From: an uncultured Acidimicrobiales bacterium
Lineage (GTDB): Bacteria > Actinomycetota > Acidimicrobiia > Acidimicrobiales > CAVXTF01
Assembly: GCA_963801315.1 (NCBI GenBank)
Contig: CAWDEI010000002.1
Coordinates: forward strand, 17,516 to 81,515
Direction of reading: 5' to 3'
Length of the DNA stretch: 64,000 bases
A program made the position numbers and the translations under genes. The notes below the pieces were generated by a model that searched no databases, was not told the DNA's origin, and saw only the letters and a list, made by a program, of their open reading frames with translations. Below are positions 3,944 to 28,921 of the stretch, one piece after another. Each line of letters begins with the position of its first letter. Positions within the stretch are counted from its first letter, which is position 1.

Positions 3944-4016
3944 GGAGGCAGGCTACCCCTGAGCCGAGAGCGACGTCCGGGAGGATGTCCGGTCCGCCGT
4001 CAGACAGAATCAGCTC

Positions 4017-4786: not shown

Positions 4787-4884
4787 CTGCCCGTCTGCCT
4801 AGCTGCCCGTCCGCCTAGCTGCCCGTCCGCCTAGCTGCCCGTCCGCCTAGCTGCCCGTCTGCCTAGCTGCCCGTCTGCCTAGCT
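4775..4884. repeat. 16-bp tandem repeat, about 6.5 copies (gcctagctgcccgtc[t/c])
   Basis: gcctag recurs every 16 bp at 4781, 4797, 4813, 4829, 4845, 4861 and 4877. The first copy contains the GNAT stop codon TAG (4784-4786). Copies differ only by a t/c polymorphism. Confidence 0.9.
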
Positions 4885-4901
4885 ACCTCGCCTCGATCGG
4901 T

Positions 4902-10553: not shown

Positions 10554-10569
10554 CTGACTCTCGTGTCAG
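10554..10569. promoter_or_regulatory. palindromic operator-like site CTGACTCTCGTGTCAG
   Basis: Exact CTGAC-N6-GTCAG, about 112 bp upstream of the amidohydrolase start (10442, minus strand). The same motif occurs at 19094, 27741 and 27774. Confidence 0.5.
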
Positions 10570-10588
10570 CTTACTTCGTGCCCATCCT

Positions 10589-10623
10589 GGTCGCCTTTGG
10601 GTCGCCTTTGGGTCGCCTTTGGG
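10589..10623. repeat. 11-bp tandem repeat x3 (tcgcctttggg)
   Basis: Three exact copies at 10591, 10602 and 10613, in the non-coding stretch upstream of the amidohydrolase gene. Confidence 0.85.
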
Positions 10624-10768
10624 CCGACGCCGCCTCCGAGGTCGACATGCCGTTTCTATTTTGGCGTTTTGTATACACATTGTTATATACACGCCCGTTC
10701 CATAAACGCCGATTTTGAATCCGCCGAGAGACTCTGACTCCGCAAGGCGGCAGCGCGGCTCAGGACGC

Positions 10769-11614
10769 TCAAAACCCCTTGAACTCCGGCTTCCGGCGCT
10801 CGGCGAAAGAACGCATCCCTTCGCCGGCATCCGCAGTCCCGATCGTGATCTCCTGGGCCCACGCTTCTTCGTCGAAAGCGGTCCGACGGTCCGATTCGAG
10901 AGACCGGTTGATCATCCATTTCGCCAGCCCCAATGCCTTGGTCGGCCCGGACGCCAGCCGTGCCGCCCACTCGCCTGCGGCCGACTCGAGATCGGCGCGA
11001 GGCACAACGCGGTTGACGAGACCCATCGCGCACGCGTCGGCGGCCGGCAGGTCGTCGCCGAAGAAGATCAGCTCCTTTGCCTTCTGCGGGCCGATGAGGC
11101 GGGCGAGGAGGTAGGCGCCACCACCGTCGGGCGCGATCCCCCTGCGGACGAAGACCTCTATGAACTTGGCGGAGTCCGCGGCGATCACCAGATCACATGC
11201 AAAGGCGAGATGAGCACCGATCCCCGCTGCCGTGCCGTTCACAGCGGCGATCACCGGCTTCTCGCAGTCGAGCACCGCGGAGATCAGGCGCTGCGCACCC
11301 AGCCTGATCATCCGCGAGGCGTCCCCGACGATCCGATCGGGAGCGCCCTCGGGCCGGGGCGGCGCAGGAGCACGGGCCGATCCACGGAGATCCGCGCCGG
11401 TGCAGAAGCCCTCGCCTGTCGCCGTGAGCACCACGGCTCTCGTCGCATGGTCCCGCGACGCCTGCTCGAGCAGGTCGATGACCCGGTCACGTTGGTCCGA
11501 CGTGATGGCATTGCGCACCTCGGGCCGGTTGAGGGTTATCCAGGACACCCCGCCCTCGATCCTGTGCTGAACCTGCTCTTCGAGCGGCGGTGCGGCAGCA
11601 GCGTCGTCGGGCAC
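10769..11614 (-). CDS. enoyl-CoA hydratase/isomerase (crotonase family)
   Basis: Intact 281-aa ORF with ITLNRPEVRNAI, FCTGADL and AAVNGTAAGIGAHLAFACDL (oxyanion-hole segments). Confidence 0.85.
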   Translation of the reverse strand: MPDDAAAAPPLEEQVQHRIEGGVSWITLNRPEVRNAITSDQRDRVIDLLEQASRDHATRAVVLTATGEGFCTGADLRGSARAPAPPRPEGAPDRIVGDASRMIRLGAQRLISAVLDCEKPVIAAVNGTAAGIGAHLAFACDLVIAADSAKFIEVFVRRGIAPDGGGAYLLARLIGPQKAKELIFFGDDLPAADACAMGLVNRVVPRADLESAAGEWAARLASGPTKALGLAKWMINRSLESDRRTAFDEEAWAQEITIGTADAGEGMRSFAERRKPEFKGF

Positions 11615-11714
11615 TTTTCGCCTCCTCAGGACCGAGCCGCCCGGGCGGCGGCGCGAAAGAGTGCTACCTGCTCCGAGTTGGTCACGTCAACGTCGCCGCT
11701 GGTGCCGCGTCAGC

Positions 11715-11754
11715 TTCGTTGCCTCTGGCACCGCGTCAGCTTCGCCGCCGCGAT
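11715..11754. promoter_or_regulatory. pair of 14-bp direct repeats (ccgcgtcagcttcg) in a divergent promoter region
   Basis: Identical 14-mers at 11715-11728 and 11741-11754, between the crotonase start (11614, -) and the CoA-transferase start (11805, +). Each contains a GTCAG half-site. Confidence 0.4.
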
Positions 11755-11804
11755 GAACGAGAGCGTCGTTGCCGGCGCAAGCGTCTCCCACGTAGTGTCC
11801 GCCC

Positions 11805-14192
11805 GTGACCGCAGCGGATCCTGGGACCGAATCGCTCCTCGAAGGCCTCCGGGTGGTCGACCTGGCGGGAGAGCCCGCCGCGATGACGGGCCGCATCCTC
11901 GCTGACCTGGGGGCCACTGTGATCAAGGTCGAGACGGCGGGCGGCGATCCCCTGCGAACGGTCCTCCCGCTCGCACCCGACGGAACGTCGTTGCGGTTCT
12001 CTGTCTGGAACACGGGCGAGACCGCGATCGAAGTGGACGGGCCCGACGATCCGCGCCTGGGCGAGCTTCTCGCGCGGGCCGACGCCGTGATCGACACCCC
12101 GGGGTGGCCGGGTGCGCTCGAGGTCGACCCGGCCAGAGCGCCCGGTGCGGTCTGGGTCTCGGTTACCCCGTTCGGGCTCGACGGCCCGCGATCGACCTGG
12201 ACGGCGTCGGACCTCGGGGTGATGGCGTCGACAGGCAACATGTACTGCACCGGGGACCCCGACAGGCCCCCGGTTCGATGTACCGAGCCCACGGCCTGGG
12301 CCCATGTCGGACCCGAGACCGCGATGGCGCTCTTGACTGCGATCGCTTCGGGAAGGCCTCAGCGCGTCGACGTCTCCGCCCAAGAGGTCGTCATGATCGC
12401 ATCAATGGGTCACCCCGCCCGCTTCCCCCGTACCGGGAACCGGGGCAGACGCTCGGGCGCCAACGTCGGGAACACGCGTGAGATCTGGCCCTGCGCCGAC
12501 GGTTACGTCTCGTTCGGGCTCCGCGGCGGCCGTGCTCGCGTCGCGAACCTCCAGACGATCACCCGGCTCGTCGACGAGGACGGTCTCGCCACGCCCGCGC
12601 TCACCGACCGCGACTGGACGACCTACGACCACACGAAGATGACGCCCGAGCAGCTCGAGGAGATATCTGCACCGATCGCGGCGTACTTCCTGCGCCACAA
12701 CATGGCGGAGCTCTACGAGATCGCGTGCGAGACCAACCTCATGCTCGCGCCCGCCAACTCGCCGCGCGAGCTCGTCGAGAGCAAGCAGCTCGCAGAGCGC
12801 GACTTCTTCTGCACGATCCGGGGGCTGGGCGGCGGCACGGGCAAGATCCCCCGCTCGTTCGTACACGTCACGAGCCCCGGCGACGCGGTCAGCCGGCCGG
12901 GACCGGCCGACGGTGACGAGAGCGCAATCAGTGCAGCAGGGGCGACAGGTCCGGGCAGGGCACGGGTGGCACCGGGCGAGGTAGGGAAGCGGGACCCTTC
13001 ATGGTCGGGCACCACGATCATCGAATTCGGGACTGGAGCCGCGGGCCCGATCGCAGTGCGCTACTTCGCGGAGCACGGGGCGAAGGTGATACGGATCGAG
13101 TCGCGGACACGACCCGATTTCTTGCGGACCTACGGGTCGAACGGGCCGTACGGGCTCGAGGGCTCCGACATGTTCGACTCTCTGAACGTCGGCAAGCTCG
13201 GGGTCACCCTCAACCTGAAGCACCCCGAAGGCAAGGACATCGCGCGCCGGCTCATCGATCTGGCGGACGCCGTCGCGGAGAACTTCGCACCGAGAGCGAT
13301 GCGCGGCTTCGGCCTCGACTACGCATCGCTCGCCGCCGACAAACCGAGCCTCGTGATGGTGAGCTCCTGCCTGCAGGGACAGACCGGCCCGCACCGCGAC
13401 TACCCGGGGTTCGGGGGCCAGGGCTCTGCGCTCGGCGGCTACAACATCTTGACGGGCTGGCCCGACCGCGAGCCGATCGGGCCGTTCGGCACCATCACGG
13501 ACTCGCTCGCTCCCCGCTTCGTCGCGACCGCTCTCGCCGCGGGGCTGCTCTACAACCGCCGCACCGGCAAGGGCGTCTACCTCGACGTGAGCCAGGCCGA
13601 GGCCGCGGTCTACAGCCTGTCGCCGTGGATCGCCGACTACACGGTGAACGGGCGCATCGGGACCCGCCAGGGCAACCGCTCGCAACGCTTCAGCCCGCAC
13701 GGAGTGTTCCCGTGCAAAGGGGACGACCGCTTCGTCGCGATCGCATGTCTCGACGACGAAGACTGGGTGAAACTGGCCGGTGTGCTCGGGATCGACGCGC
13801 GCGAGACCAGCCGGCTCGGCTCACTCGAATCGCGCGAACAGGAGCGCGAAGCGATCGAACAGACCATCGTGCGATAGACCTCGCAACGCGACGCGAGCGA
13901 CGTCGCAGAGACGCTCCAGGCATTGGGCGTGGAGGCGGTGCCCGTCGCCGACCTGGCCGACGCGTTCGAGGATCCGCAGCTCCGTCACCGCGGGCACTTC
14001 GTCGCGCTCGAGCATCCGCTCATGGGCGAGTGCTTCTACGAGCGCAACGGATTCAGGCTCTCCCAGGCGGATGCGGGCTACGACCGGACGAGCCCCTTGT
14101 TGGGGGAGCACAACGAGATGGTGCTCGGCGAGCTTCTCGGGATGTCGAGCGCGGAGATGGAACGGCTACGCGAAGAGGGCGTTCTCGAGTAG
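11805..14192 (+). pseudogene. tandem (double-domain) family III CoA-transferase (CaiB/BaiF-like) with in-frame TAG
   Basis: ORF 11805..13877 holds two CoA-transferase III modules (LEGLRVVDLAGEPAAMTGRILADLGA... and IIEFGTGAAGPIAVRYFAEHGA...). ORF 13923..14192 continues the second module in the same frame (VPVADLADAFEDPQLRHRGHF...). They are separated only by TAG at 13875-13877. Confidence 0.75.
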
Positions 14193-15227
14193 GCCTGCCA
14201 TCCCACCGATGTTCCGGAGCAGGTCGTTCAGGTGGGTACAGGAAGCCACACCGAAAAGAGCGACAGGTACGACTGCCGGCAGGTCCGCGAGCAGCGTTCC
14301 GCTGAGCGCATGGACCTCCGACGCGGCCGCAGGGCACTCCGTGAAAGGCAGGACCTTCGGGTCCGCCTCCACCGAGACGAGCGCCATCCCGCCGTCCGCC
14401 CTCTCGAGACGCCCGGTGAGCGCATACTCGTGTAGCACCAGCTCCGAACCGTCGGGCTCGCCGACCGTGTCGCGGAACATCGCCCACAGGGACGCGCCGC
14501 CATCCTCGTCGTCGAACGCGACGTCGACCAGCCGGCGCCGGCGCATGCAGTTCGCACCGAGCGGCGGGATCGCATGCCACGAACGCGGGTGGCCGCCAGT
14601 CAGGTCGGGAGCCTCGGGGCAGTCCTGGAACGGCACGCCCTTTCCCGCCGCGATGCTCTCCACCGCCACTCCGCCGGCGCGCCATCCGGAGCACATGTCG
14701 GTCATCCGCCCGAGCACGCCCGGAGGCGTGAGGTCGCCTGGATTGACGGCGAGGCGGCGCGCCAGACGGAGCGACGCGTAGCCCGAGATGAGTGCTGCCG
14801 CTGGCAGGTCTTCCATGAGCTGGCGCACGATGGTGGCGCCCGAACCGGGCGCGATCTCGGCGAGCTTCCGGCGGAAGCCGCCGCCTGCGCGCTCGCCCAC
14901 CATCGCGTCGGCCCACGACGTCACCGGGTCGGTCTCGAGATGGTCGAGGACTCGTTTGCGGTCGAATCGGGCGCTCACGCTTCCCGTGGCGAGAGTCTCG
15001 AATCCCCCATTGGCCCGCGAACGCCCGCGCACGTCGCGCGCCGCCCCGTCTATCTGGAGCTCTCCGCCGCCGAACCATTCGTTGGCCGGTCCGACGTCGA
15101 CATGCATGGTGCGCCGGAGCGTGGACACAGTGAGCGCAGGAACCGCCCGGAGAGGGTCGCGTACCCCAAAGATCCCCTGATCGTCAGCCGGTTCTCCGGT
15201 GATCGGACTGCCCGCGTCGTGTGCCAC
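14166..15227 (-). CDS. conserved hypothetical protein (possibly DUF2889-like)
   Basis: ORF 14166..15395. The upstream gene ends at 15257, so an in-frame GTG at about 15227 is the likely start. No catalytic motif recognised. The family assignment is from memory only. Confidence 0.45.
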   Translation of the reverse strand: MAHDAGSPITGEPADDQGIFGVRDPLRAVPALTVSTLRRTMHVDVGPANEWFGGGELQIDGAARDVRGRSRANGGFETLATGSVSARFDRKRVLDHLETDPVTSWADAMVGERAGGGFRRKLAEIAPGSGATIVRQLMEDLPAAALISGYASLRLARRLAVNPGDLTPPGVLGRMTDMCSGWRAGGVAVESIAAGKGVPFQDCPEAPDLTGGHPRSWHAIPPLGANCMRRRRLVDVAFDDEDGGASLWAMFRDTVGEPDGSELVLHEYALTGRLERADGGMALVSVEADPKVLPFTECPAAASEVHALSGTLLADLPAVVPVALFGVASCTHLNDLLRNIGGMAGLLENALFA

Positions 15228-15256
15228 AGGCTCGACGCTACCGGTGCGACGGCCGG

Positions 15257-16150
15257 TCAACCTCCCTGCAGGTACGTAAAGAGCATCATCTGCGTGGCAT
15301 AGGCGACGAGGTTGCCCTCCTCGTCCCAGATCGTCGACTCCCCAGACGCCCACCCGTCGTCGGCCCAGCGAGCCTTGTCGTGAGCGAGGAGCCAAGTGGT
15401 GCGGGCGGGCTCGAACTGGTGGAACGTAAGGTCGGCGCTCGGGGAGAACCAGGGCTCACCCTGACGACCGATCCGCTCGCCAACCGAGCCCGGCATCCGG
15501 TCCGCGAGAGTCAGCACCCCGAGAGGGTCGAGAGCTCCGTCGTCGTCGCGTGGAGGGTCGTCGAAGCGAACCCAGCTCGCCACCTCCGAGCTGACCGGTT
15601 CGTAGTCCTCCCAGGGCGCGTGCCCGAGAGCCGAACGGGCCTCGATGCGATTCCAGAACGGCCGGGGCGGAAACGGCTCCACCCCCGCCGGCGGCGGGTC
15701 GCGGTACGAGCGGCATTCGGAAGGCGGCGGGACCACGGGGGGCGTCAGGTCGACGAACGACGGTCCGCGCCGTGACGACCCGAACACGGCGACGGTGGTC
15801 GTACCGGATGCCTCGCCGGCGTTGCGGACCGTCGCGAGCACCTGCGTGGCGGAGCGTCCGCGGCGGAGCACCGAGACGTCCACCTCGAGCTCGCCGGCGG
15901 CCACCTGCCCGGCGAACACCGCAGTGCAGGTCCGCAGCTTCTGGGCCGGGTCTTCCACCTCCGCGCCTGACGCTCGCAGCGCGAACGAAGCCACGACTCC
16001 GCCCTGCGGCAGGGGCGCCAGGTCCCAGCTGTGGTCGAGGGTGGCTCTGTAACGACCGGGTCCCGACTTCTCGACGACGATGTCCTCGGCGAAGATCCCG
16101 CTCACCGTGCGAGAGGTTGTTCGCTCGCAGGCCGGGAGGTCAAACTCCAC
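15257..16150 (-). CDS. acyl-CoA thioesterase II (TesB-like double hotdog)
   Basis: Intact 297-aa ORF. The length and two-hotdog organisation (...GGVVASFALRA... / ...LADRMPGSV...SADLTFHQF...) are typical of TesB-type thioesterases. Confidence 0.65.
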   Translation of the reverse strand: MEFDLPACERTTSRTVSGIFAEDIVVEKSGPGRYRATLDHSWDLAPLPQGGVVASFALRASGAEVEDPAQKLRTCTAVFAGQVAAGELEVDVSVLRRGRSATQVLATVRNAGEASGTTTVAVFGSSRRGPSFVDLTPPVVPPPSECRSYRDPPPAGVEPFPPRPFWNRIEARSALGHAPWEDYEPVSSEVASWVRFDDPPRDDDGALDPLGVLTLADRMPGSVGERIGRQGEPWFSPSADLTFHQFEPARTTWLLAHDKARWADDGWASGESTIWDEEGNLVAYATQMMLFTYLQGG

Positions 16151-16278
16151 GATCGGGTACCGTCATGCGTCACTGCAACGGCCGGGACGGCCGACGAGAG
16201 ATCGCGGCCGGGACGGCCGGCCGAGAGCCCGGCCGCGGCAGCCGCAGAGATCGAACGCAAGAGCAAGGGGGAATCGGG

Positions 16279-17663
16279 ATGGGCCGGAAGGTAGCGATCG
16301 TCGGGGCAGCCCTGTCGGACTGCGGCCGCGTCGACGACAAGACGGCCTACCAGCTCCACCACCAGGCGACCACGAGGGCTCTCGCCGACGCGGGCATCTC
16401 GCGTGACGAGGTCGACGGCTTCATGTCCCACGGGACCGGGAACCTGCCGCCCATCGAGCTCGCCGAGTACCTGGGGCTCGCATCCCACGTCGAGTACATC
16501 GACTCGACCGGGGTCGGGCGGGTCGTGCTGGGAGATCTTCCTCGAGCACGCCGTCGCCGCCATCTCGCAGGGGCAGGTCGAGACCGTCGTCCTCTCCTAC
16601 GGCTCGACCTCGCGAGCGGACCTGAAGCGCCGGACGAGAAGCGCCAACCTCTACTTCGGAAACCGCGGTCCCGCTCAATTCGACGCTCCGTTCGGCCACA
16701 CCCTGATCGCGAAGCACGCGATGTCGGCGCGCCGGCACATGTACGAGTTCGGCACGACGATCGAACAGCTCGCCGAGATCGCCGTCTCCGCCAGGTACAA
16801 CGCCGGGCTCAACCCACTCGCCTACTACAGGGACCCGATCACCATCGAAGACGTCCAGTCGCTCGAGCATGATCGCCGACCCGTTCACCAAGCTCCACTG
16901 CTGCATCCGGTCCGACGGCGGCGGAGCGATAGTCCTCACGAGCGAGGAGCGCGCGCGCGACTGCGCCAGCACGCCGGTGTGGGTGCTCGGAGCGGGAGAG
17001 GCCATCTCGCACACCACGATGAGCGAATGGCCGGACTTCACCGAGTCGCCGTGCGTCAGGTCGGGCAAGAAGGCCTTCGGCCAGGCGGGCGTCAGCCCAG
17101 AGGACATCGACGTCGTCGAGGTCTACGACTCGTTCACCTTGACCGTGCTCCTCACGTTGGAAGGGCTCGGCTTCTGCAAGAAGGGCGAGGGCGGGCCCTT
17201 CGTCGAGGGTGGGACGCTTCGTGTCGGCGGCGCCCTCCCCACCAACACCGACGGCGGCGGGCTCAGCTCGTGCCAGCCGGGGATGAGGGGCATCTTCCTG
17301 CTCGTCGAGGCCACCAAACAGCTGCGCGGCGAATGCGGTGACCGCCAGGTCGACGACGCCCGCCTCGCCTGCGTCAACGCGACGGGCGGTTGGATCTCGT
17401 CGACCGGGACTGTGATCCTCGGCGCGTTACGCAGCGCGGCCGCGCCTTCGGCGCCTGACCCGGTCGAGCCGGCGGCCGGCCGCCGGGAAGGCGAGAGCCT
17501 TGGTCTCGAGGTACTCCTCGAATCCCTGACGTCCGTTCTCTCGACCCACGCCGCTCTGCCTGTAACCGCCGAACGGCACGTCGGGAGCGTTCCAGAATCC
17601 CCCGTTCACCATCACGGTGCCCGCGCGCAGGCGCCGGGCCACCGAGTCGGCGTGGTCGAGTGA
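16279..17663 (+). pseudogene. thiolase-like / SCP-x-type (lipid-transfer-protein-like) thiolase, frameshifted
   Basis: MGRKVAIVGAALSDCGRVDD...IDSTGVG is in ORF 15772..16872. GGSCWEIFLEHAVAAISQG...ITIEDVQS is in ORF 16403..17341. MIADPFTKLHCCIRSDGGGAIVL...NTDGGGLS...ATGGW is in ORF 16869..17663. Shifts are at about 16520 and 16862. The family sequence ends near 17430, so the last ~230 nt overlapping the convergent ALDH look like read-through after loss of the native stop. Confidence 0.7.
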
Positions 17664-19032
17664 GCCCCCGGTGACAACGGCCGACAGGCCGTACATGGTC
17701 CCGTTGGCGATCCTCACCGCCTCGTCGTCGCCTTCGTAAGGGATGACACACAGCACCGGGCCGAAGATCTCCTCCTGCGCGATGGTGCTCGCCGGATCGA
17801 CGTCCGCGAAGAGCGTGGGCTCGACGAAGAACCCCTTGGGGAGATGGGCCGGCCTGCCACCGCCCCGAACGAGCCTCGCTCCTTCGGAGCGCCCGCTCGC
17901 GATGTAGCCGAGCACCCGTTCGCGCTGGCGGCCGTTTATGAGCGGGCCCTGCAGGTTGGCCGGGTCCCAGGGGTCGCCGTAGGTGACGCTCCCCATCATC
18001 TGATCCGTCATCGCGAGCCATTCGTCGTAGCGGGAACGCGGCAGCAACAGGCGAGTCGCTATCGCACATCCCTGCCCGGAGTGCGTGCAGACCCCCACCG
18101 CGCTTATCCCGATCGCACCGCCCGGGTCCTCCACGTCGTCGAGGACGATGTTGGCGGACTTGCCGCCGAGCTCGAGGAACACCTTCTTCACCGTTCCCGA
18201 TGCGCTCGCCATTATCCGCCGGCCCGTGACCGTCGAACCCGTGAAGGTGATCATGTCGACCCTCGGGTCTGCGGTCAGCACCTCACCGACCAGGTGGTCC
18301 GACGAACAGCACGATGTTCACGACGCCGGCCGGTATGTCGGTCTCCTCGGCGATGATCCGGCCGAGCACCGTCGCCGACCACGGGGTGTCGGGTGCGGGC
18401 TTCAACACCACCGTGTTCCCCGCTGCGAGCGCGGGCCCGAGCTTGGCGAGGTTCAAGTTGAGCGGGAAGTTCCAAGGCGTGATCGCTCCCACGACCCCCA
18501 CCGCCTCGCGCACGACGACGCGGCGCTGGGCCTGCCCGAACACGTCGCGGTCCGGGAGCGTCTCTTCGTACTCGTAGCGCTCCGGCTTGTCGATCCAGTA
18601 GGCGAGGTCCTCTATGGGCAGGTCGACCTGGTTCATGTAGGTGAGCGAGATCGGCGAGCCGACCTCGGCGACGGTGACCTGCCGCAGCTCCTCTACGTGC
18701 TTGGCGAGGCCGGCATGCAGCTGCGCCAGGCACTTCGACCGGAACGCCCTGTTCGTCGACCAGTCGGTGTCGTCGAACGCCTTGCGAGCTGCCTCGATGG
18801 CGAGCTCCATGTCCTCGCCCGTCGCGTCCGCCGTCACGCCGAGGACCTCCTCGGTGGAGGGGTCGATGTTCTCGAACGTGCCTCCAGATCGCGAATCGGT
18901 CAGCTTGCCGCCGACCAGGAGCCGGGGCTCCCCGCCGACCTGCGGGTGACTCACTGGTGGAACGCTCAACGGCGGCTGGGAGTCGGTCCCGTCGGTGCCG
19001 TCACTCACTTGACCTCCCGGGCATATCGTCAT
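17427..19032 (-). pseudogene. NAD(P)-dependent aldehyde dehydrogenase, frameshifted
   Basis: The N-terminal half is ORF 18283..19032 (...ITPWNFPLNLNLAKLGPALAAGNTVVLKPA...IPAGVVNIV). The C-terminal half is ORF 17427..18281 (...ITFTGSTVTGRRI...LELGGKSANIV...GQGCIATRLL...EEIFGPV). The junction is at about 18310. Confidence 0.8.
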
Positions 19033-19093
19033 ATGGCGCGCCGGAGCCGGCTGCCTCGGCCGGCCATCCTAAGTGCGTGTCCGGCCCCTCTGC

Positions 19094-19109
19094 CTGACAC
19101 GGGTGTCAG
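19094..19109. promoter_or_regulatory. palindromic operator-like site CTGACACGGGTGTCAG, followed by a TATAAG -10-like hexamer
   Basis: Exact CTGAC-N6-GTCAG, with arms extending to cctgacac/gtgtcagg. It lies between the divergent ALDH (19032, -) and amidohydrolase (19158, +) genes. Confidence 0.5.
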
Positions 19110-19157
19110 GTATAAGATCGCCGCTGATCGTGGGCCATTTGGTCGAAGGAGGAGACG

Positions 19158-20435
19158 ATGCGAGCTGAGGACATGATCCTCGTGAGCGTCGACGACCATG
19201 TCGTCGAGCCCCCCGACCTGTTCGAGGGGCGGGTGCCCGCAAAGTGGGCTGACCAGGCCCCGAAGGTCGTCCATAGAGACGACGGGACCGACTACTGGGT
19301 CTACGAGGGCAACCAGATCCCCAACATCGGCCTGAACGCGGTCGCCGGCCGCCCGCCCGAGGAGTACGGGATCGAGCCGACCTCGTACTCAGAGATGCGC
19401 ACGGGTTGCTACGACATCCACGAGCGCGTGCGGGACATGAACGTGAACGGCGTGCTCGGTTCGATGTGCTTTCCTTCCTTCCCGCAGTTCTGCGGTCAGC
19501 TGTGGGCGAGGACCGAGGACAAAGAGCTCGGCCTCGCCATGCTGCAGGCGTACAACGACTGGCACATCGAGACGTGGTGCGGCACCTATCCGGGACGCTT
19601 CATCCCGCTGTGCCTACCCCCGCTCTGGGATCCCGAGCTGATGGCGGCCGAGGTCCGGCGCGTCGCCGCAAAGGGCTGCCACGCCATCACCTTCTCGGAG
19701 AACCCGTCGAAGCTCGGGTACGCGAGCTTCCACGACAAGCACTGGTATCCCTTCTTCAAGGCGTGCGAGGACGAGGGAACGGTCATCTGCCTGCACATCG
19801 GGTCGTCGTCCCAGCTCATGATCACCGCTCCCGACGCCCCGATAGACGTCCTCATAACCCTGTCACCCATGAACATCGTCCAGGCGGCCGCCGACCTCAT
19901 CTGGTCCCCGGTGCTCCGGGACTTCCCGACGCTCAGGTTCGCCCTCTCCGAGGGCGGCATCGGGTGGGTGCCCTACTTCTTGGAGCGCGTCGACTACGTC
20001 TACCAGCACCACAAGGCTTGGACCGGCCAGGACTTCGGCGACAAGTTGCCGAGCCAGGTCTTCTTGGAGCGCACGGTGCTCTGCTTCATAGACGACGCCT
20101 TCGGGGTCGAGAGCCGGCATCACATGAACATCGACAACATCACCTGGGAGTGCGACTACCCGCACTCGGACTCGACGTGGCCCACGGCGCCCGAGCTCGC
20201 GATGAAGTACCTCCACGACGTGCCCGATGCGGAGATCAACAAGATCACCCACGAGAACGCCATGCGCATATTCAGCTACGACCCGTTCGCTCACCGCCCG
20301 CGCGAGAAGTGCACGGTGGACGCGCTGCGCCTCGAGGCAGCGGACGTGGACACAAGCCTCCGCTCCGGAGGAAAACGTCGCACGTCGGCGACCAAGTCGA
20401 CAGACCTGGGCACGATCGCAGGCGTCAGGAACTGA
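19158..20435 (+). CDS. amidohydrolase-2 family metal-dependent hydrolase
   Basis: Intact 425-aa ORF with VSVDDHVVEPPDLF, GWVPYFLERVDYVY and WECDYPHSDSTWP. GGAGGAG RBS at about 19148-19154. Confidence 0.8.
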   Translation: MRAEDMILVSVDDHVVEPPDLFEGRVPAKWADQAPKVVHRDDGTDYWVYEGNQIPNIGLNAVAGRPPEEYGIEPTSYSEMRTGCYDIHERVRDMNVNGVLGSMCFPSFPQFCGQLWARTEDKELGLAMLQAYNDWHIETWCGTYPGRFIPLCLPPLWDPELMAAEVRRVAAKGCHAITFSENPSKLGYASFHDKHWYPFFKACEDEGTVICLHIGSSSQLMITAPDAPIDVLITLSPMNIVQAAADLIWSPVLRDFPTLRFALSEGGIGWVPYFLERVDYVYQHHKAWTGQDFGDKLPSQVFLERTVLCFIDDAFGVESRHHMNIDNITWECDYPHSDSTWPTAPELAMKYLHDVPDAEINKITHENAMRIFSYDPFAHRPREKCTVDALRLEAADVDTSLRSGGKRRTSATKSTDLGTIAGVRN

Positions 20436-20643
20436 CAGTGCCGGTCGACGGTCCCGGCGACGCTGGACCGCCACCGGTCCCGGTACCGACACCGACTGCG
20501 GCTCACAAGAAGCGGCCGGCGTGCATGGAGTGCCTGTCGGCCGTTCGCGTGGCGACGTGCCGACGATACGAGTCGGGCATGCCGTGAACGCCGGCGCAGT
20601 GGGCATCGGCCATGACCTCCAGGAGGAAGGCAAGTGACGGATC

Positions 20644-22138
20644 TTGACTCGAAAGGTGCCGGTCGTCGTCGGGGGCGGGCAGTTCACGAACAGGATCGAG
20701 GACCCGGGGTCCGCTCCCGACCCGTTCGAGCTGATGACCGAGGCTGCAGGCAGGGCGGCTGCGAGCGCCGGCTCGAAGGACTGGCTCGGCCGCCTGACTC
20801 ACTGCTGGATGGTCCACTCGATCTCCCTGCGCCACGCCGATCCGGCAGCCGAGGTCGCCGCACGCATCGGAGCGCCCGGCAGGCGCCGAACGTCGCTGCT
20901 CGGGGATGGGGGGCAACATCCCGCAATGGCTCGTCAACCGCGCCGCCGACCTCGTCCGCTCGGGATCGCGACCCGTCGTGCTCGTGGTCGGAGCAGAGGC
21001 GCTCGCGACGCGCAGGCGCGCCAAGAAGGCGGGGATCCGCTTGGACTGGCCGTCATCTGACGGCTGGCCGGACATGTGGCCCCCGCTCGAACCGGACATG
21101 GGGGTCTCCCCGCTCGAAGATGCGCACGGCCTGAGGCAGGCCACAACGATGTACGCGCTCATCGAGTCCGCGATCGCCCATGCAGCAGGTGAGGACCGGG
21201 TTGCTCACAACCGGGCGATCGGTGAGCTGATGGCGGGCCTGAACGAGGTTGCGGTCGCGAACCCGTACTCGTGGTTCCCCGAGCGGCGCGACGCTCGAGA
21301 GCTCGTGACGGTGACTCCGGACAACCGCATGATCGCGACCCCGTATCCCAAATACCTGAACGCGGTGATGGACGTCGACATGTCGGCTGCGGTCATCGTG
21401 ACCGACGCTGAGACGGCCCGGCAGGAGGGCCTCGCACCCGACGCTGTCGCGTACCTCAGGGGATGGGCCGACGCGAGCGAGGTCTGGTACCTGTCGGAGC
21501 GGACCGAGGTCCACAGATCCCCGGCGCTCGAGGGCTGCTTCAGCTCGGCGCTCGGCACGGCCGGCCTCTCTGCGGACGACATCTCTTCGTTCGACCTGTA
21601 CGCGTGCTTCCCGAGCTCGGTCGAGGTGTCGCGTGACGCGTTCGGGGTCCCGCGAGGCGATCCCCGCCGCCTCACCTTGACCGGCGGCCTGCCGTACCAC
21701 GGTGGGCCGGGAAGCAATTACGTCACTCATGCGGTGTGCAACGCGCTCGAGCACGTCCGTTCGGGCTCAGGCCCCGCAATCGTGCACGGCAACGGCTACT
21801 ACCTCACCAAGCACGCGGTGGGTGTGTACAGCGGCGAGGCCCCCGACTCCGCTCCGGAGCCCGGTGACACGCCGGATCTCGGTACGCCGACGCTCCCCGT
21901 CGAGCCCGACGCGAGCGGTCAGGCGAGCATCGTCGCGTGGACCGTTCCCTACGGCCGCGACGGAGATGCCGAGCCCGGGATCATCATCGCCGACACACCC
22001 CGAGGTACGAGGACGATCGCACGTGCCGACAGCGAGCTGACCGCGTTGCTCTCAGGATCGGACCGCGACCTCGTCGGCGAGACGGTTCAGATCAGGCAGG
22101 ATCAGGATGGCGGCTCGAGAACCATGACGGCGTTGTAG
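20644..22138 (+). pseudogene. thiolase-like protein (acetyl-CoA acetyltransferase family), frameshifted
   Basis: ORF 20644..21060 (VPVVVGGGQFTNR...AARIGAPG) continues in ORF 20906..22138 (MGGNIPQWLVNRAADLV...YPKYLNAVMDVDMSAAVIV...). The shift lies in GGGG/GGGGGG runs at about 20900. The start is ambiguous (see findings). Confidence 0.7.
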
Positions 22139-23278
22139 CCGCCCATCCCGAGCGACGACTTGACGACGGGTGCACGAACGGCCTTCGTGATCCCGTCGAG
22201 CAGGCGAGGGTGTCCGGGTGCGACACGTCGAGGCGCAGGTATCAAGCCGGTCTCGAACCCGTGGAGGGTCGCCACGAGCTCTACCGACCCGGCGGCCCCC
22301 TGGCAGTGACCGGCGAGGGGCTTGACCGAGAAGATGCCCTCGGCCTGCGGGAAGAGAGTGTCGAGGACCTCTGACTCGCACGTGTCGCACTGCTTCGTGC
22401 CGGGCCCGTGCGCGTTCACGTACGCGATCTCAGAAGCGTCCACGCCGGAGTTGTCGAGGGCACCCCGGAAAGCACGGAACACCTGCTTGTGGTCGGGGTT
22501 TATCGAGATGGCGTGGTACCCGTCATGCGACATGGACCCGCCTCGGATGGTCGCGTAAGAGCCCGAAGGCTGCTTGGACACGATCATTGCGATCGTCGCC
22601 TCGCCTCCGACGAAGCCTCGGCTCCCCTCTTGGAACGGGCGGCACGCATCGAAGGCTGGCGACGTCGACTATGAGCACGCCGAGGTCGCTGAACGCCCGG
22701 ATGTTCTCAGGAGTCCCGGACAGGTCTGTCGCGAGCACGAGAACATCGGTCGCCAGGCCGGCATCGATCCACATCTTCGCGGTGAGGAGGGATGCGACGC
22801 CCGACGCGCACATCGCGGTGACCATCATGTTCGGGCCGTGCATGTCGAACTCCTGCATGATCCCCGACAAGAGAGTCGAGGGCATGAGGTTGAGCCACTC
22901 CTTCTTCGAGGTGTGGTAGCCGTGCCTGCGGTGGAACCCGCGCCATGCGCCGACGTCGCCGAGCACCACCCCGTCGATCAGCCCGACGACCTCGCCCGGG
23001 CGCCAACCACGGTCGTACGCGTCGCCGAACGCTTCGCGAACAGCGTGACGGGTAGCCCTCGCGTAGCGGCTCTTGCCGTCGGCGGGGTCCCCGCCCTCCT
23101 CGATGAGAGCGACCCAGACCTCGTCGGTGTCGAAATGCGTCCCGAAACCCGGAGTCAGTCGCACAGCTGACTCGCCCGACACGAGACCCTGGCGGAGCAG
23201 CTTCTGGCCCCACCCGTAGCCCGTGACGGCTCCGACTCCACAAATAGACACCCCGGCTTGCTGCGAGCTGGTGCCCAT
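22102..23278 (-). pseudogene. beta-ketoacyl synthase (KAS I/II-like), frameshifted
   Basis: The N-terminal part is in ORF 22523..23422 from ATG 23278 (MGTSSQQAGVSICGVGAVTGYG..., active-site VTAMCASGVAS). The C-terminal part is ORF 22102..22587 (FQEGSRGFVGGEA..., NAHGPGTKQCD, LAGHCQGAAG). The junction is at about 22645. Confidence 0.75.
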
Positions 23279-23643
23279 GGCCCTGGATCTCCTCTGCCTC
23301 CGGCAACGCCGGTCTATTCGTCCGAGCGGCCAAGCTCTACGTTGTGCTTCCGTTGATAGTAAAGGCCGGAAGTCGCGAATTCCGACTTTGCACTGAGTCG
23401 GTTTCCAACAATAACGGCCCAAATTCTCGCCACGACCGAACTGTCTTCACGCACGGAACCTCACAGATCGTGATCGAGACTGCTCAGGTCACGACTACTT
23501 TGCTCCCTGCGTGAGGGAATCACATCCGCGTAATTCGCGTGGTGGTTCTTTGACGCGATGCGTGACAACACCAGCAACTCATTTTGGACACGAACCGCGT
23601 GCCACAAGGTAAAGCTGCAGTTGGCAACCTCCGATAAAGAGGC

Positions 23644-26209
23644 ATGGTGCAAGCGAATCCAGGCGTCGCTCCGTTCGACTCCGGGCTGCCATATCCGGAT
23701 TCCGGAGCGCTGAGCGACCCACATCAGCGCTTCGCACTGTTCGCGGATCTGATGCACGTGGTCACCTGGGAGCTCGAGATACCAGGAGACGGTGCCGTCT
23801 GGCACGCCCCTGCCTCCGATCTCTTCGGCGACGACCTGGCCGCCGGATCGTTCCTCGTGCGCAGAGCACGCGACTCGGAGGAGTCCGACCCGTTCGTGTC
23901 GGTCGCGCCCGAGGACCTCGGCGACGCCCTCTTGGAGCCACTCATCGCCGGCGCCAACACGGGGATCACCTGGGACAGCTACGAGCTGCTCCAGGAGGTC
24001 GAGAGTCCCGACGGCGAGACGCACCGGGTCCTCGTTAGAGCGGTGGCGATCCCCGTTCAGGGGATGCGCCGGTTCTTGGGGATCGTCGCCGACGTGACGC
24101 ATTCGGGCGAGGTTCCGTGGGTCACCGTGGACGTCACCAGACGTCTCGAGCTGCTCGTCGAGCACTCGCCCGACGCCATCGTGGTCCACCAGGACGGCCG
24201 GATCGTCTACGCCAACCCCGCTGCGGCGAAGATCGTCGGCGAGGACCTGATGAGCGACATGGGCAAGCCCATCTCGTCGTACCTCCACCCCGACTACGTG
24301 AGGCCGACTCTCGAGCGCCTCACCCAGCTCACCGAGCCCGGCGACGCAATGAAGGGTCACGAGGCGGTGATCATCCGCGCAGACGGCGCACAGATCCCCG
24401 TCGAGGTCGCGAGCGTCCGCACGAGCTGGGGTGGAAAGCCTGCGTTCCAGGTGATCATGCGCGACATGTCCGAGCGCAAGCTCGCCGAGGAGGCCGCTCG
24501 AGCGCGGCTCGCGCTGGAGCGGCGATACGCCGCGGCGGTCGCCGCACTCGAAGAGGGCGTCGTCGTGATGGACCGCAGCGGTGCGGTGCGCGCCGCCAAC
24601 GAGTCGGCCGTCCGAATGCTCGGGCGTCGGCTTCACGAGGCACGCGGCGATGCGATATTCACGGGCTCCGACGTCGCCAGGCACGATCCCGCCGGCACGT
24701 TCGCTCCCGACGAGCTGCCGATCGCGGCCGCGCTCGAGCGCAGCGAGGTGACCACGAACGTGGTGCTCGGGGTGCGCGACGACGAAGGCAGAGACCAGTG
24801 GCTGTCGGTCAGCGCCCGACCGTTGGAGGACCAGGACGACAACGAGGCCGCCGTCGTCTGCTCTGTATCCGACATCACAGAGCGCAAGCAGCTGATGGAC
24901 AGGCTCGCCTGGGAGGCGCGCCATGACCCTCTCACGGGTCTCGCCAACCGAACGAGCTTCGTGGCCGCCGCACAGCGCGCTCATGACCTGCGTCACCGCA
25001 CAGGTCAGACTCTTGCTCTCTTCTGCTTCGATCTCGACCGCTTCAAGCTCGTAAACGACTCGCTCGGCCACGCCGTCGGGAACGAGGTCCTTCTCACCGT
25101 CGCCGAACGGCTCCGCCAGGCGATGCCGTGCGCACTGGCTCTGTGCAGGTTGCACGGCGACGAGTTCGCTGCACTCGAGCCAGGTGTCGGCGATACCGAC
25201 ACCGCATTGCAGCGTGCAGAGGAGCTCTGCGCCCGCCTCACCCAGCCGATGCGACTGTCGACCGGTCGCACGCTCACGATCACGCCGAGCGTCGGGGTCG
25301 TGCTGTTCGAGGACGGGCCGGCCGACGCCGCAAGCCTTCTGCAGGATGCCGACATGGCGATGCTCCAGGCGAAGACGAGGGGCAGGGGCAGGGTCGCCGT
25401 GTTCGACGCCGGCCTGCGAGAAGAGGTGGGCCAACGCCTCGAGCTCGAGCACGACCTGCGATCCGCCATCGGAAACGGCGAGCTGCGTCTCGAGTACCAA
25501 CCGGTCGCGTCCTTGTCGAGCGGCAAGATCCTCGGCATGGAGGCGCTCGTGCGATGGGAGCACCCGGAGAAGGGCCTCCTGCTTCCTCTCAAATTCATCG
25601 GTCTGGCGGAGGAGTCCGACCTCATCGTCTCTCTGGGACGCTGGGTGCTCGAGACGGGCTGCACGCAGATGGCGCGGTGGAGGGCCGTGCATCCCCAGGC
25701 CGAGCATGCTTTCATCGCGGTGAACGTGTCTCCTCGCCAGCTCGAGAGCGCCGAGCTGCTGCCGGCGCTGCGCGAGGCGCTGCAGAAGAGCGAGCTCCCG
25801 GCGGGCGCTCTGATGCTCGAGATAACAGAGAGCGGGATCGTCGCCGACGACACTCGCATGCACAGGCTTGTTGAACGAGCTGCGCGAGTTCGGCGTGCGG
25901 CTCGCGATCGACGACTTCGGCACCGGCTACTCGTCTCTCAGCTATCTGAAGCGGCTCCCCGTGAGCCATCTCAAGATCGACCGCTCATTCGTCAACGGGC
26001 TCGGGACGGACACCGAGGACGAGCGGATCGTCGCCGCGGTCACTGAGCTCGGTCACGGGCTCGGGCTTCGGGTCGTGGCCGAGGGGATCGAGAACCGCCA
26101 GCAGCGTCAACGTGCGCGCGAGCTCGGGTGCGACCTCTATCAGGGGTTCCTGCTCGCAAAGCCGTGCCGGCCTCGCGACGTTCCCGCGCTGCTCCGCCTG
26201 AACGCCTGA
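23644..26209 (+). pseudogene. PAS-PAS-GGDEF-EAL c-di-GMP signalling protein, frameshifted within the EAL domain
   Basis: ORF 23644..26046 holds PAS modules, RHDPLTGLANR, a degenerate HGDEF and EALVRWEHP. The EAL continuation LLNELREFGVRLAIDDFGTGYSSLSYLKRLPVSHLKIDRSF...VAEGIE...QGF is in ORF 25868..26209. The junction is at about 25865. Confidence 0.8.
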
Positions 26210-26234
26210 GACGTCCCGGCGGTTTCCGGCGGGT

Positions 26235-26429
26235 TCAGTCTCTCTGGATCGTCAGAGCGAGCTCGGGGCAGTTGTCTACGCCGCTCGTCGCGGCAGCCTC
26301 ACGCCCCTCGGGAACAGTGTCCACGAGAAGCACGCAGTGGCCGCGATCGTCTGCGTCGAACAGATCGGGAGCGAGCGAGTAGCAGCGCCCGTGACCCTGA
26401 CAGCGCTCCTCGTCGAGGATTATCCGCAT
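26235..26429 (-). CDS. small ferredoxin (P450-associated, single-cluster type)
   Basis: 64-aa ORF MRIILDEERCQGHGRCYSLAPDLF...CPELAL, showing the CxxHxxC...CP pattern. It lies 5 bp downstream of the P450 gene on the same strand. Confidence 0.8.
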   Translation of the reverse strand: MRIILDEERCQGHGRCYSLAPDLFDADDRGHCVLLVDTVPEGREAAATSGVDNCPELALTIQRD

Positions 26430-26434
26430 CGGGC

Positions 26435-27640
26435 TCAGCAGGGGGTGAACACGATGGGCAGGTTCTCCACCGAGCGAAGGCCGGGCGTGTACTCGAGCAC
26501 GGTGCCCTCGACGAGTGAGTAATCGGGGATGCGCTTGTGAAATTCACGGAGAGCCACTCGCAGCTCGAGGCGCGCCAGGTGCGAGCCGAGGCAGCGGTGG
26601 ACGCCGCCGCCGAATGCGAGATGGGGGTTGGGGTCGCGGGCCAGGTCCACCGAGTCGACTCCCGGATGCGCCCCGTCGTCCGTGTTCGCCGAGGCGATCA
26701 GCAGCATGACCTGCTCGCCCGCATGGATCGGGCAGCCGCCCACGTCAACGTCCGTCGTCGCCACCCTGGCGACCGCGGGCACCGGGCTTTCCCAGCGCAG
26801 CAGCTCCTCGATGGCGGAGGGGATGATCTCGGGGTGCTCGACGAGCTGCCGGCGGTGCTCCGGCTCCTGCGCGAGGTAGGCGAACATGCAGTCGAGCGAG
26901 TCGGTCACCGTGTCGAGACCGGCGATCATGAAAAGGAAGCAGATGTCGAGGATCTCGTCGTCCGTGAGCTTCTCGCCGTCGAGCTCGGCGGCCATGATCC
27001 GACCGAGGAGGTCCGACAGACCGGGGGCCTTGCGTCGCTCGTCGATCACGGCCTGGAAGTACTCGTAGATGTCCTGGGCGGTCTTCTTGCGGACCGGCTC
27101 CTGCTCCTCCATGGAGTTCCCGGGAGGACGGATGATCCCGTCTTTCATCGCGAGGAACTGGTCGAGGTGCTCGAGCGGCAGTCCCATCAGCTTGAGGAAC
27201 ACCGTGCAAGGCATCGGGACCGACAGCTCGGCGTGCAGGTCTGCGGTTCCGCTGCCCGCGAACTCGTCCACGATGCTGTTGAAGAGCTCGACCACCTCGT
27301 CTTCGAGCGCCGCCATCGCACGAGGTGCGAAAAGGGGGTCCAGGATGCGCCGGTACTTGACGTGCTTCGGAGGGTCCACCTGCAGCGGGATGAGTGGCCT
27401 GATATTTCCGAGCTGGACTGCTTCTGCGCCCGACGAGAACACGCCCGGGGTGCGCAGGGCCGACTCGATGTGCTCGCGGCGGGTGACGATCGTGAATTCG
27501 TCGCCGATCCTCATCACCGGCTGCTCCCGCATCATCCTGGCTATCGCCCGCGGATCGTCCGAGGCCGAAAGGTCAGGGATCAGCTGATAATCGGGCTCGG
27601 CGGCCACCGGCTCACCGTCGATTGCCCTGTCGATTGCCAT
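26435..27640 (-). CDS. cytochrome P450
   Basis: ORF 26435..27727. ATG 27640 is preceded by AAGGGGG. It has the heme-binding loop FGGGVHRCLGSHLA, an EELLRWESP (ExxR) motif and the I-helix AGLDTVT. About 401 aa, intact. Confidence 0.9.
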   Translation of the reverse strand: MAIDRAIDGEPVAAEPDYQLIPDLSASDDPRAIARMMREQPVMRIGDEFTIVTRREHIESALRTPGVFSSGAEAVQLGNIRPLIPLQVDPPKHVKYRRILDPLFAPRAMAALEDEVVELFNSIVDEFAGSGTADLHAELSVPMPCTVFLKLMGLPLEHLDQFLAMKDGIIRPPGNSMEEQEPVRKKTAQDIYEYFQAVIDERRKAPGLSDLLGRIMAAELDGEKLTDDEILDICFLFMIAGLDTVTDSLDCMFAYLAQEPEHRRQLVEHPEIIPSAIEELLRWESPVPAVARVATTDVDVGGCPIHAGEQVMLLIASANTDDGAHPGVDSVDLARDPNPHLAFGGGVHRCLGSHLARLELRVALREFHKRIPDYSLVEGTVLEYTPGLRSVENLPIVFTPC

Positions 27641-27740
27641 CGGGCAACCCCCTTTTGGTCCAGCGATCCACGCGCCCACCGAATGACCGCGGTGCGGTCG
27701 CCTTCCGAGTGAGGCGCCCCAGGGCAAAGATTAGCGTTTC

Positions 27741-27789
27741 CTGACGCTGGTGTCAGCATGACGCCCGTGTCATCTGACAGATGCGTCAG
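27741..27789. promoter_or_regulatory. array of three adjacent 16-bp palindromes ([C/A]TGAC-N6-GTCA[G/T])
   Basis: CTGACGCTGGTGTCAG (27741-27756), ATGACGCCCGTGTCAT (27758-27773) and CTGACAGATGCGTCAG (27774-27789). They lie between the P450 start (27640, -) and the HTH gene start (27865, +). Confidence 0.55.
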
Positions 27790-27864: not shown

Positions 27865-28921
27865 GTGGGCGCGAACGGCGACAGGTCAACGAGCCGCCGC
27901 AGCAAGCGCCGCGGGGACAAGCTGCTCACGCCCCCGGAGGCCGGAGAGATGCTCCGAAGTGCGCGCGCCAGCCTCGGGATCGAGTTGCCCGAGGTCCACG
28001 ACCGCACGGGCATCTCGTGGAGGAACCTCGAGGCCCTCGAGGCCGGGGATGTCCAGCGGTTCTCCGACCCTGCCGCAGCTGCCGTCGCAATGAGGCGGTA
28101 TGCCGAGCTCGTGTCGCTCGACCCCGAGCCGCTCGTCAGATCCGTCACCTCGCCGGTTCTCGCTCTGGCGGGGGCACCGGCTCCGGGAGTCAATGCGTCG
28201 TGGGCTCCGGGACCTGCCGAGACCGAGGCCTCAGGGCACTTACGGCGCTACTACGGCGATCATTCCCACCTGCGATCGTTCACCCAGACCGCCCAGGTAC
28301 CTTCGGTCGGCGGCTGGCCGTCGGGTCAGGTGACCGGCACCGTCCCCCCTTCCGGGCCGGCGGGGGGGTACCAGGCTCCCAGTCGAAGACGAAAGGCCCC
28401 TTGGCCGTTGCGATTCATGATCTGGTTCGTTCTTTTCCTCGTCCTCGTGGGGGTGGCGGGCATTTCCATCAACCACTACAAGCCTCAATGGCTTCGCGAC
28501 ATCCACGTGCTCAGGAACACACCGAAGAAGGCCGCTGCTCCGAGCTCGAACAGTCAAAGCCAGACCCCACCGACTTCGCACCCGCGCCCGACCACTCCGC
28601 CTCCCGCGCTTGTAACCACGACTCGCAGCGGGATCGGGACGGCCTCCGTGAAGGTCGGCGTCGTCGAACTACTCCATAAAGATCGCGACCTTCAATTACT
28701 GCTGGGTCGAAGCTCAGATCCCGGGAACCATCAACCCCATCTTCGACCGGACGTTGACCCCGGGCCAGACCGTCAGCATCCCTGTCACCGGCGGCCAGGT
28801 GAGCGTCGAGCTCGGAGCCTTGGCGGCCGGGATGTCGGTTCAGATAGCAGGAAAGTCGGTGCCGGGGTGGACCCTGCATCCGAATGCGGTTCCCTTCATC
28901 GCGACCTTCACGAGTAGTTGA
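27865..28921 (+). pseudogene. RodZ-like membrane protein (N-terminal HTH, TM, C-terminal DUF4115-like domain), frameshifted
   Basis: ORF 27865..28917 has an XRE-type HTH (LLTPPEAGEMLRSARASLGIELPEVHDRTGISWRNLEALE) and a TM segment (FMIWFVLFLVLVGVAGI). After ...SVKVGV, the plausible C-terminal domain SNYSIKIATFNYCWVEAQIPGTINPIFDRTLTPGQTVSIPVTGGQVSVELGA...FIATFTSS* is read in another frame ending at TGA 28921. The shift is at about 28665. Confidence 0.65.

Follow-up and report, generated by a model that had tools for sequence, protein, structure and literature searches.

Palindromic sites and the genes around them

The 64-kb stretch of an uncultured Acidimicrobiales genome analyzed here (contig CAWDEI010000002.1; hereafter, the window) combines a catabolic half with, on the right, the chromosome origin region (dnaA, dnaN, recF, gyrB, gyrA, yidC, jag, parAB, and trxB). 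An earlier note, made from the sequence alone, pointed to a palindrome, CTGAC-N6-GTCAG, that recurs at catabolic promoters in this DNA. Pattern search of the window confirmed the four exact matches to CTGACNNNNNNGTCAG, at 10554, 19094, 27741, and 27774; the variant ATGACGCCCGTGTCAT at 27758 is present as well, and the arms of the 19094 site indeed extend to 8 bp. As detailed below, this palindrome is very probably the operator of a repressor, with binding predicted from its form, conservation, and position. The sites and the genes that flank them are the following (PWM, position weight matrix derived from related loci).

10554..10569, predicted operator site CTGACTCTCGTGTCAG (CTGACACGAGAGTCAG in gene orientation); precedes a frameshifted Amidohydro_2 paralogue (minus strand)
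19093..19110 (core 19094-19109), best predicted operator, CCTGACAC-GG-GTGTCAGG, with 8-bp arms; PWM score 29.6
27741..27756, predicted P450-proximal operator CTGACGCTGGTGTCAG (CTGACACCAGCGTCAG in P450 orientation), with GAAACGC and TAATCT coming next on that strand
27758..27773, middle site ATGACGCCCGTGTCAT, outer bases altered; PWM score 13.3
27774..27789, third site of the array, CTGACAGATGCGTCAG; PWM score 16.3; seen in the window only
9290..10442, minus strand, second Amidohydro_2 paralogue (Pfam), frameshifted near 9730-9753; downstream of the 10554 site
17427..19032, minus strand, aldehyde dehydrogenase (ALDH), with one frameshift near 18310; divergent from the DitZ-like gene
19158..20435, plus strand, DitZ-like diiron oxygenase (Pfam Amidohydro_2), intact; downstream of the 19094 site
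26235..26429, minus strand, 64-aa ferredoxin, 3Fe-4S type as judged by eye from the cysteine pattern, directly downstream of the P450 gene; translation MRIILDEERCQGHGRCYSLAPD...NCPELAL
26435..27640, minus strand, cytochrome P450; probable start ATG 27640, preceded by the ribosome-binding site AAAGGGGG
27865..28917, plus strand, HTH_25/RodZ-like membrane protein gene, frameshifted near 28656-28661 as previously noticed; divergent from the P450 gene

The four exact copies compare with a chance expectation of 0.16 (the earlier estimate was 0.06), and none of 100 dinucleotide-preserving shuffles gave four copies, so that the claimed excess over chance holds. The shorter core TGAC-N6-GTCA has seven matches vs 1.19 expected; five of these are the sites listed above and two lie within coding sequence. 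All five sites, that is, the four exact copies and the variant, are intergenic, and gene calls together with Pfam and homology searches bore out that the copies are promoter-proximal: the 10554 site is located 112 bp upstream of the minus-strand Amidohydro_2 gene, the 19094 site in the region between the divergent ALDH (start 19032) and DitZ-like (start 19158) genes, and the array 27741-27789 between the P450 gene (probable ATG 27640) and the HTH_25 gene (27865). In the window's catabolic half, outside these three promoter regions, no weaker sites with a PWM score of at least 9 were detected in the other intergenic regions.

Some additional sequence features lie close to the sites. The divergent enoyl-CoA hydratase/CoA-transferase region (11705-11744) contains two direct copies of CCGCGTCAGCTTCG, 26 bp apart, each readable as CTGGY-N5-GTCAG, that is, operator-like with a spacer one base short; they are perhaps half sites or degenerate ones. 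Close to the 10554 site, on its upstream (minus-sense) side, an 11-nt unit, GGTCGCCTTTG, is present in 3.2 repeats (10589-10623), adjoined by a patch (10640-10700, including TTGTATACACATTGTTATATACA) that is unusually AT-rich for a genome with 66% GC.

Conservation of the motif and layout of the promoters

We searched for the palindrome in 80 loci (1.34 Mb) that were fetched solely by homology to the protein encoded at 19158, without the motif being used in choosing them. The best relatives of this protein come from metagenome-assembled genomes of Acidimicrobiales or, more broadly, Acidimicrobiia, with at most 77% identity, whereas those from cultured Mycobacteriales show only about 64%. Exact-sequence look-ups of two window proteins gave no record, which suggests that this genome is not represented in the collection. 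The 80 loci contain 50 exact copies of CTGAC-N6-GTCAG, of which 29 (58%) fall within the 8.7% of the sequence that is non-coding (p=2e-18, with conservative gene calls); the sites are concentrated in intergenic DNA. In L001-L008, L027, L036, L056, and L063 (L numbers denote loci), a distance of 55-60 bp separates the motif from the hydroxylase orthologue downstream of it. The counterpart of the 19094 site occupies the same position in L001-L008 (alignment A1), the P450 array has a counterpart in L001-L006 and L008 (alignment A2), and in L011, L016, L081, L083, L205, and L209, the orthologous first Amidohydro_2 paralogue is preceded by a counterpart of the 10554 site, so that the sites are conserved upstream of orthologous genes. 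In both alignments, the arms are kept and the flanks are unrelated across orthologous loci that are about 70% identical.

With a softened weight matrix, 101 sites (89 distinct) score at least 18 in 1.57 Mb of related loci, and the full motif spans about 20 bp, wa(C)CTGAC-RY-N2-RY-GTCAG(G)tw, which with the commonest center becomes the perfect palindrome CTGACACGCGTGTCAG. The genes directly downstream of the sites most often encode P450s (12) and Amidohydro_2 proteins (8), and also include those for short-chain dehydrogenases/reductases (SDRs), FGGY kinase, 2-hydroxyacid dehydrogenase, acyl-CoA dehydrogenase (ACAD), MaoC hydratase, and other proteins; they fit a single type of pathway. Between the DUF2889 and SCP-x-type thiolase genes of L001-L004 and L008 (around 3454-5078), a variant with one mismatch, CCGACGCCGG(C/T)GTCAG, is kept; the window has a thioesterase gene (15257-16150) inserted here, and no site is detectable at 16100-16320.

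The alignments also locate the probable core promoters. In A1, the hexamer TATGAT follows the operator by 3 bp in L001-L006 and L008, and its equivalent in the window is TAAGAT; both have the form TANNNT of the actinobacterial -10 element. A Shine-Dalgarno sequence and an ATG lie about 40 bp beyond this hexamer, and the opposite strand has a TANNNT hexamer for ALDH at a distance of about 25 bp from the 19094 site. Given hexamers on either strand, the single 19094 site would cover, in both divergent promoters, the spacer and the -35 region. The TATAAG hexamer to which the earlier note drew attention is present at 19111-19116, but the functional -10 is more likely the overlapping TAAGAT, which corresponds to TATGAT of the relatives. 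The two -10 elements predicted with the help of the alignments are:

19113..19118, plus strand, probable -10 TAAGAT (TANNNT), 3 bp after the 19094 operator; position deduced from conservation in A1
27728..27733, minus strand, probable P450 -10 TAATCT, 7 bp after the proximal operator; position deduced from A2

In A2, the proximal operator and the adjoining GAAAC are invariant in L001-L006 and L008, most of which have TAACGT where the window has the P450 -10 TAATCT. A second site, 2 bp upstream of the proximal one, is present in L001, L002, L006, L008, and the window, the middle site of the window (27758) corresponding to the distal site of these four loci; only in the window is there a third. 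The TTG codon at 27725-27727, which opens the longest P450 open reading frame (ORF), is unlikely to be the start because it comes immediately after the predicted -10, inside the promoter, and ATG 27640 with its AAAGGGGG is a more plausible candidate. At the third region, a possible -10, TAAGCT on the minus strand, was seen by eye to overlap the upstream edge of the 10554 operator; around this site, simple scans picked up neither a sigma-70 promoter nor a terminator. Rfam search of the window detected no family at the operator sites, its sole match being a tRNA (37221-37294).

As judged from these predicted elements, with transcription starts deduced in the same way, the operators overlap or abut core promoters (spacer/-35 region, or -10), and such positions within promoters are those of a repressor. 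Conservation and overlap with core promoter elements support the proposal of the earlier note that the palindrome is an operator-type site common to several catabolic promoters.

Candidate regulator

The earlier note had also stated that the window encodes no regulator of the palindrome. This remained so in six-frame searches of the window with a TetR hidden Markov model (HMM) built from relatives and with MarR, GntR, LacI, NarL, CRP, and IclR seeds, which yielded no match, and in a tblastn search of the window with the candidate regulator proteins described below, which was negative. In somewhat more distant relatives, one FadR/FasR-like TetR subfamily is encoded repeatedly within motif-rich clusters, as is no other transcription factor. 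Its members match Pfam TetR_N only, with no Pfam family for the C-terminal domain, and have the recognition helix SHGTFYLYF. The structure model (predicted local distance difference test score, pLDDT, 86.6) is closest in fold to the acyl-CoA-binding FadR, FasR, and EthR, and the helix-turn-helix (HTH) is closest to that of Bacillus FadR (E=6e-8).

The gene of this TetR subfamily co-localizes with the sites. TetR detection in all six frames, combined with PWM scores, showed 2-5 strong sites in each of the seven hydroxylase-anchored loci encoding it (L011, L012, L016, L020, L038, L039, and L045), vs at least two strong sites in 14 of the 73 other loci (a descriptive hand tally). One of the seven, L012, has the hydroxylase orthologue with 72% identity. 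Look-ups by TetR homology alone led, in seven of seven cases, to loci with 2-8 sites. Two such loci, L210 and L211, have no hydroxylase nearby; here, the TetR gene closes an operon of P450, ACAD, and TetR genes that is preceded by two sites. In L031, whose TetR ORF is of a longer kind (see below), sites similarly precede an operon of enoyl-CoA hydratase (ECH) and TetR genes. Loci in which TetRs of other types are encoded beside the hydroxylase (L042, L053, L054, L065, and others) have no sites.

Other TetR genes were also noted. The unrelated metagenome contig L182 (62% GC) encodes, at 337-1100, a FadR-like TetR with the helix GTFYLYF and a TetR_C_24 domain; the perfect palindrome AACTGACACGCGTGTCAGTT lies 25 bp upstream of this gene, and a shorter CTGAC-GC-GTCAG about 100 bp away. 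L024, L031, L040, and L044 contain TetR ORFs of 396-437 aa (for example, L031:7635-8897), which in L024, L031, and L044 align twice along their length to TetR queries, suggesting tandem double TetRs of the Mce3R type. In L031, L040, and L044, the ECH-TetR operon is divergent from the hydroxylase gene and lies beside an asymmetric variant of the motif, xTGACAC-N5-GTTAG.

We somewhat favor the FadR/FasR-like TetR subfamily as the regulator of the palindrome, the gene of this particular genome being elsewhere, outside the 64-kb window, or lost. Several observations weigh against this assignment or against parts of the wider interpretation. An initial test of the association between TetR and sites, with exact sites and crude clustering, was not significant (p=0.10), the split being clearer in the later tally given above. 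In the commonest arrangement, where the TetR gene is divergent from an AMP-ligase gene, there is no site upstream of the TetR gene itself; autoregulation from an own operator is frequent, albeit not obligatory, in the TetR family and is the usual supporting sign, which is thus missing here. L001-L008, the eight closest relatives, have sites with no such TetR within 10 kb on either side, and the same holds for the window, in which no such TetR is encoded within -19/+44 kb. The co-localization of TetR and sites could arise simply because both are part of one cluster. When two mismatches were permitted, the search of the window for CTGAC-N6-GTCAG gave 47 matches vs 43.6 expected, with no enrichment, so that the signal is confined to exact and near-exact sites. 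Of the 120 loci retrieved by a metagenome scan for CTGACACNNGTGTCAG, most were chance matches in unrelated DNA of low GC content and about a dozen were true cluster members; only L182 and L105 proved informative, both having a site within the promoter of a TetR gene. Finally, the assignment of a diterpenoid substrate, discussed below, relies on about 50% sequence identity to one characterized enzyme.

The missing autoregulatory site, the sites without a nearby TetR gene in the window and L001-L008, and the weak crude association would all be accounted for if the operator were real but recognized by another, so far unseen transcription factor encoded elsewhere, with the TetR controlling a different gene, such as the adjacent AMP-ligase only. 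We regard this possibility as unlikely, though worth keeping in mind: no other transcription factor family recurs near the sites in about 100 loci, and TetR-anchored look-ups always give sites, even where, as in L210 and L211, there is no hydroxylase.

Two proteins encoded closer to the sites were considered as well, each with a very low probability. The HTH_25/RodZ-like protein (27865-28917), the only HTH protein adjoining a site in the window, would have to bind the array and regulate the P450 and the other promoters; the P450-sites-HTH_25 adjacency is kept in the seven closest relatives but limited to them, and dozens of loci have sites without an HTH_25 gene. In the L002 translation, inspected by eye, the protein is organized like RodZ, its N-terminal HTH being followed by a hydrophobic segment that probably spans the membrane and then by a C-terminal domain; it matches Pfam HTH_25 and, weakly, the NCBIfam RodZ model. 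Its gene is frameshifted in the window, and the orientation and spacing of the array fit the P450 -10 rather than the HTH_25 start. Domain layout and distribution led to its rejection as the regulator; it is a neighbor of the array. The other candidate is cl25, a conserved ORF of 110-135 aa, with a winged-helix look by eye, found at around 6300-6960 in L001-L006 and L008. Because it lies downstream of ALDH, read-through from the operator-bearing promoter is possible, and it could have been the regulator of this lineage, lost from the window. It is, however, absent from the window, is confined to seven loci while the motif spans the class, matches no Pfam or NCBIfam family, and is preceded by an AT-rich palindrome of its own, GAACTACAA-N3-TTGTAGTTC, that differs from the operator; the different palindrome and the narrow distribution led to its rejection. 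An invariant CTCACTACAAACTAG is also found upstream of cl25, which may be a separate, small autoregulated regulator.

That the copies are a product of chance, a dispersed repeat, or an RNA hairpin is hardly credible, even with arms as short as 5 bp and no enrichment at two mismatches, in view of the shuffling result, the arms kept between unrelated flanks, the fact that the sites face genes either way round, which is what palindromes should do, and, for the hairpin, a 5-bp stem too weak to be stable and the lack of an Rfam match.

Taken together, the palindrome is likely the operator of a dimeric HTH repressor that controls a catabolic regulon, with TetR as the most likely regulator, encoded elsewhere in this genome or lost. 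The dimeric repressor would bind the palindrome and, since each operator overlaps or abuts a core promoter, exclude RNA polymerase. In the ALDH/DitZ-like region, one site would serve both divergent promoters, whereas at the P450 promoter, two or three abutting sites would allow the binding of several dimers. By analogy, the repressor might be released by an acyl-CoA of the pathway.

Proposed regulated pathway and relation to known systems

Both genes called amidohydrolases in the earlier note do encode Pfam Amidohydro_2 proteins, but by sequence similarity the intact one belongs to the DitZ/PtmU3 group of diiron oxygenases. The protein encoded at 19158 matches DitZ of Rhodococcus (PDB 8UYR) with E=2.5e-108 and about 50% identity over its full length, residues 1-405 being aligned to 1-412, and is more distant from PtmU3 (E=2e-36). 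DitZ and PtmU3 are amidohydrolase-related diiron oxygenases, DitZ being described as a diterpenoid hydroxylase from Pseudomonas and Rhodococcus (PMC13154177). The P450 of the window is nearest to CYP143, CYP125, and CYP142-type enzymes. Nearby genes encode enoyl-CoA hydratase, a double family-III CoA-transferase, a DUF2889 protein, acyl-CoA thioesterase, SCP-x-type thiolase, the thiolase-like protein TLP1, NDP-forming acyl-CoA synthetase, an AMP-ligase, SDRs, and an ACAD; the motif-rich clusters of relatives likewise contain CoA ligases/transferases, dehydrogenases, hydratases, and ChsH2/SCP-x-type thiolases. The combination of a DitZ-like hydroxylase, a P450, and enzymes acting on CoA esters points to a terpenoid or alicyclic acid being oxidized in the form of its CoA ester, so that the regulon looks like one for the catabolism of such acids. 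Under this scheme, the repressor would control the breakdown of terpenoid, alicyclic, or branched acids via CoA thioesters, with a regulon that would comprise the DitZ-like hydroxylase, P450 and ferredoxin, ALDH, CoA ligases/transferases, ACADs, hydratases, and SCP-x/ChsH2-type thiolases.

The two halves of the window differ in the state of their genes. Within 1-31 kb, at least 10 genes are frameshifted or truncated, including those for ALDH, thiolase (twice), TLP1, HTH_25, the second Amidohydro_2 paralogue, NDP-forming acyl-CoA synthetase, and the AMP-ligase, as well as the C-termini of a copper amine oxidase and a GGDEF-EAL protein, whereas the origin-proximal half (31000-64000) is intact (gyrA, gyrB, recF, dnaN, dnaA, yidC, parAB, and trxB). 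Both oxygenase genes, DitZ-like and P450, and all operators are intact. Most of the frameshifts are not at homopolymer runs, so that simple long-read error is no obvious explanation; the cluster may be genuinely decaying, or the assembly may be faulty here. The TLP1 and P450 genes, which are adjacent in L002, L004, and L008, are separated in the window by extra genes, namely, fragments resembling ketosynthase on the minus strand (22102-23422) and a PAS-GGDEF-EAL gene (23644-26209) with a frameshift close to its end.

Although widespread in soil, freshwater, and activated sludge, Acidimicrobiia have hardly been studied genetically. We put forward, tentatively and with some reservation, a broader scenario in which an undescribed TetR subfamily and this operator run a class-wide Acidimicrobiia regulon around a DitZ-type hydroxylase and a P450, with the cluster of the present genome decaying, its operators and two oxygenases intact, and its regulator unlinked. 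If so, abundant soil and freshwater Acidimicrobiia would degrade plant-derived diterpenoid (resin-acid-like) or similar alicyclic acids. A well-defined, conserved operator makes it possible to catalog the genes of one catabolic regulon in uncultured genomes, puts forward a candidate regulator open to in vitro testing, and ties the recently recognized DitZ-type diiron hydroxylases to a wider pathway with a P450 and CoA-dependent, beta-oxidation-like steps. Palindromic operators over promoters being textbook, the value lies in annotation and pathway discovery rather than in new biology.

Among known systems, the likeness to DitZ and PtmU3 (PMC13154177; PDB 8UYR, 6OMP) concerns the regulated enzyme, not the switch, and the cited work on DitZ gives no regulator or operator for the DitZ clusters. 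Mce3R, a tandem double-TetR repressor of lipid genes in M. tuberculosis (PDB 9B7Y), is resembled by the long TetR ORFs of the second group of relatives; this type is absent from the window, and the similarity of a TetR of the candidate subfamily to Mce3R is weak (E=5e-4).

KstR and KstR2 of Mycobacterium and Rhodococcus are TetR repressors of cholesterol and lipid catabolism with the operators TnnAACnnGTTnnA and AnCAAGnnCTTGnT, respectively (PMC1995591, PMC3068626). The system described here is similar in that a palindrome of 14-16 bp is found at many P450, ACAD, hydratase, and thiolase promoters and the candidate regulator is of the TetR type; furthermore, the inner 14 bp of the operator, TGACACGCGTGTCA, have the frame T..AC..GT..A and agree with six of the eight specified KstR positions. 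Unlike KstR and KstR2, it belongs to another bacterial class and involves a DitZ-like diiron hydroxylase instead of steroid ring-degrading genes, and the candidate TetR scores 19 bits vs the KstR model cut-off of 280. In agreement with the earlier note, which did not recognize the palindrome as a KstR or KstR2 operator, neither the pattern TnnAACnnGTTnnA nor AnCAAGnnCTTGnT has a match in the window (0 each).

The operators of the TetR-family FadR of Bacillus are 16-bp inverted repeats, each bound by two dimers (PMC5397183). The acyl-CoA-responsive FadR proteins of this genus (B. subtilis YsiA, B. halodurans FadR) are the best HTH and fold match of the candidate TetR, and their two-dimer repeats resemble the abutting sites at the P450 promoter of the window. 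In contrast, the B. halodurans FadR-box, GATGAATGAATACTCATTCAT, is unrelated in sequence to the operator, and the candidate TetRs score 41.7-48.7 bits vs the NCBIfam FadR equivalog cut-off of 200 and are also far below the FasR cut-off. A literature search for the operator string and its variants gave no match in the papers covered. Given the differences from KstR and KstR2, the scores below the NCBIfam cut-offs, and this lack of a precedent, the palindrome and its probable regulator appear to be of a familiar type, with the operator itself undescribed so far.

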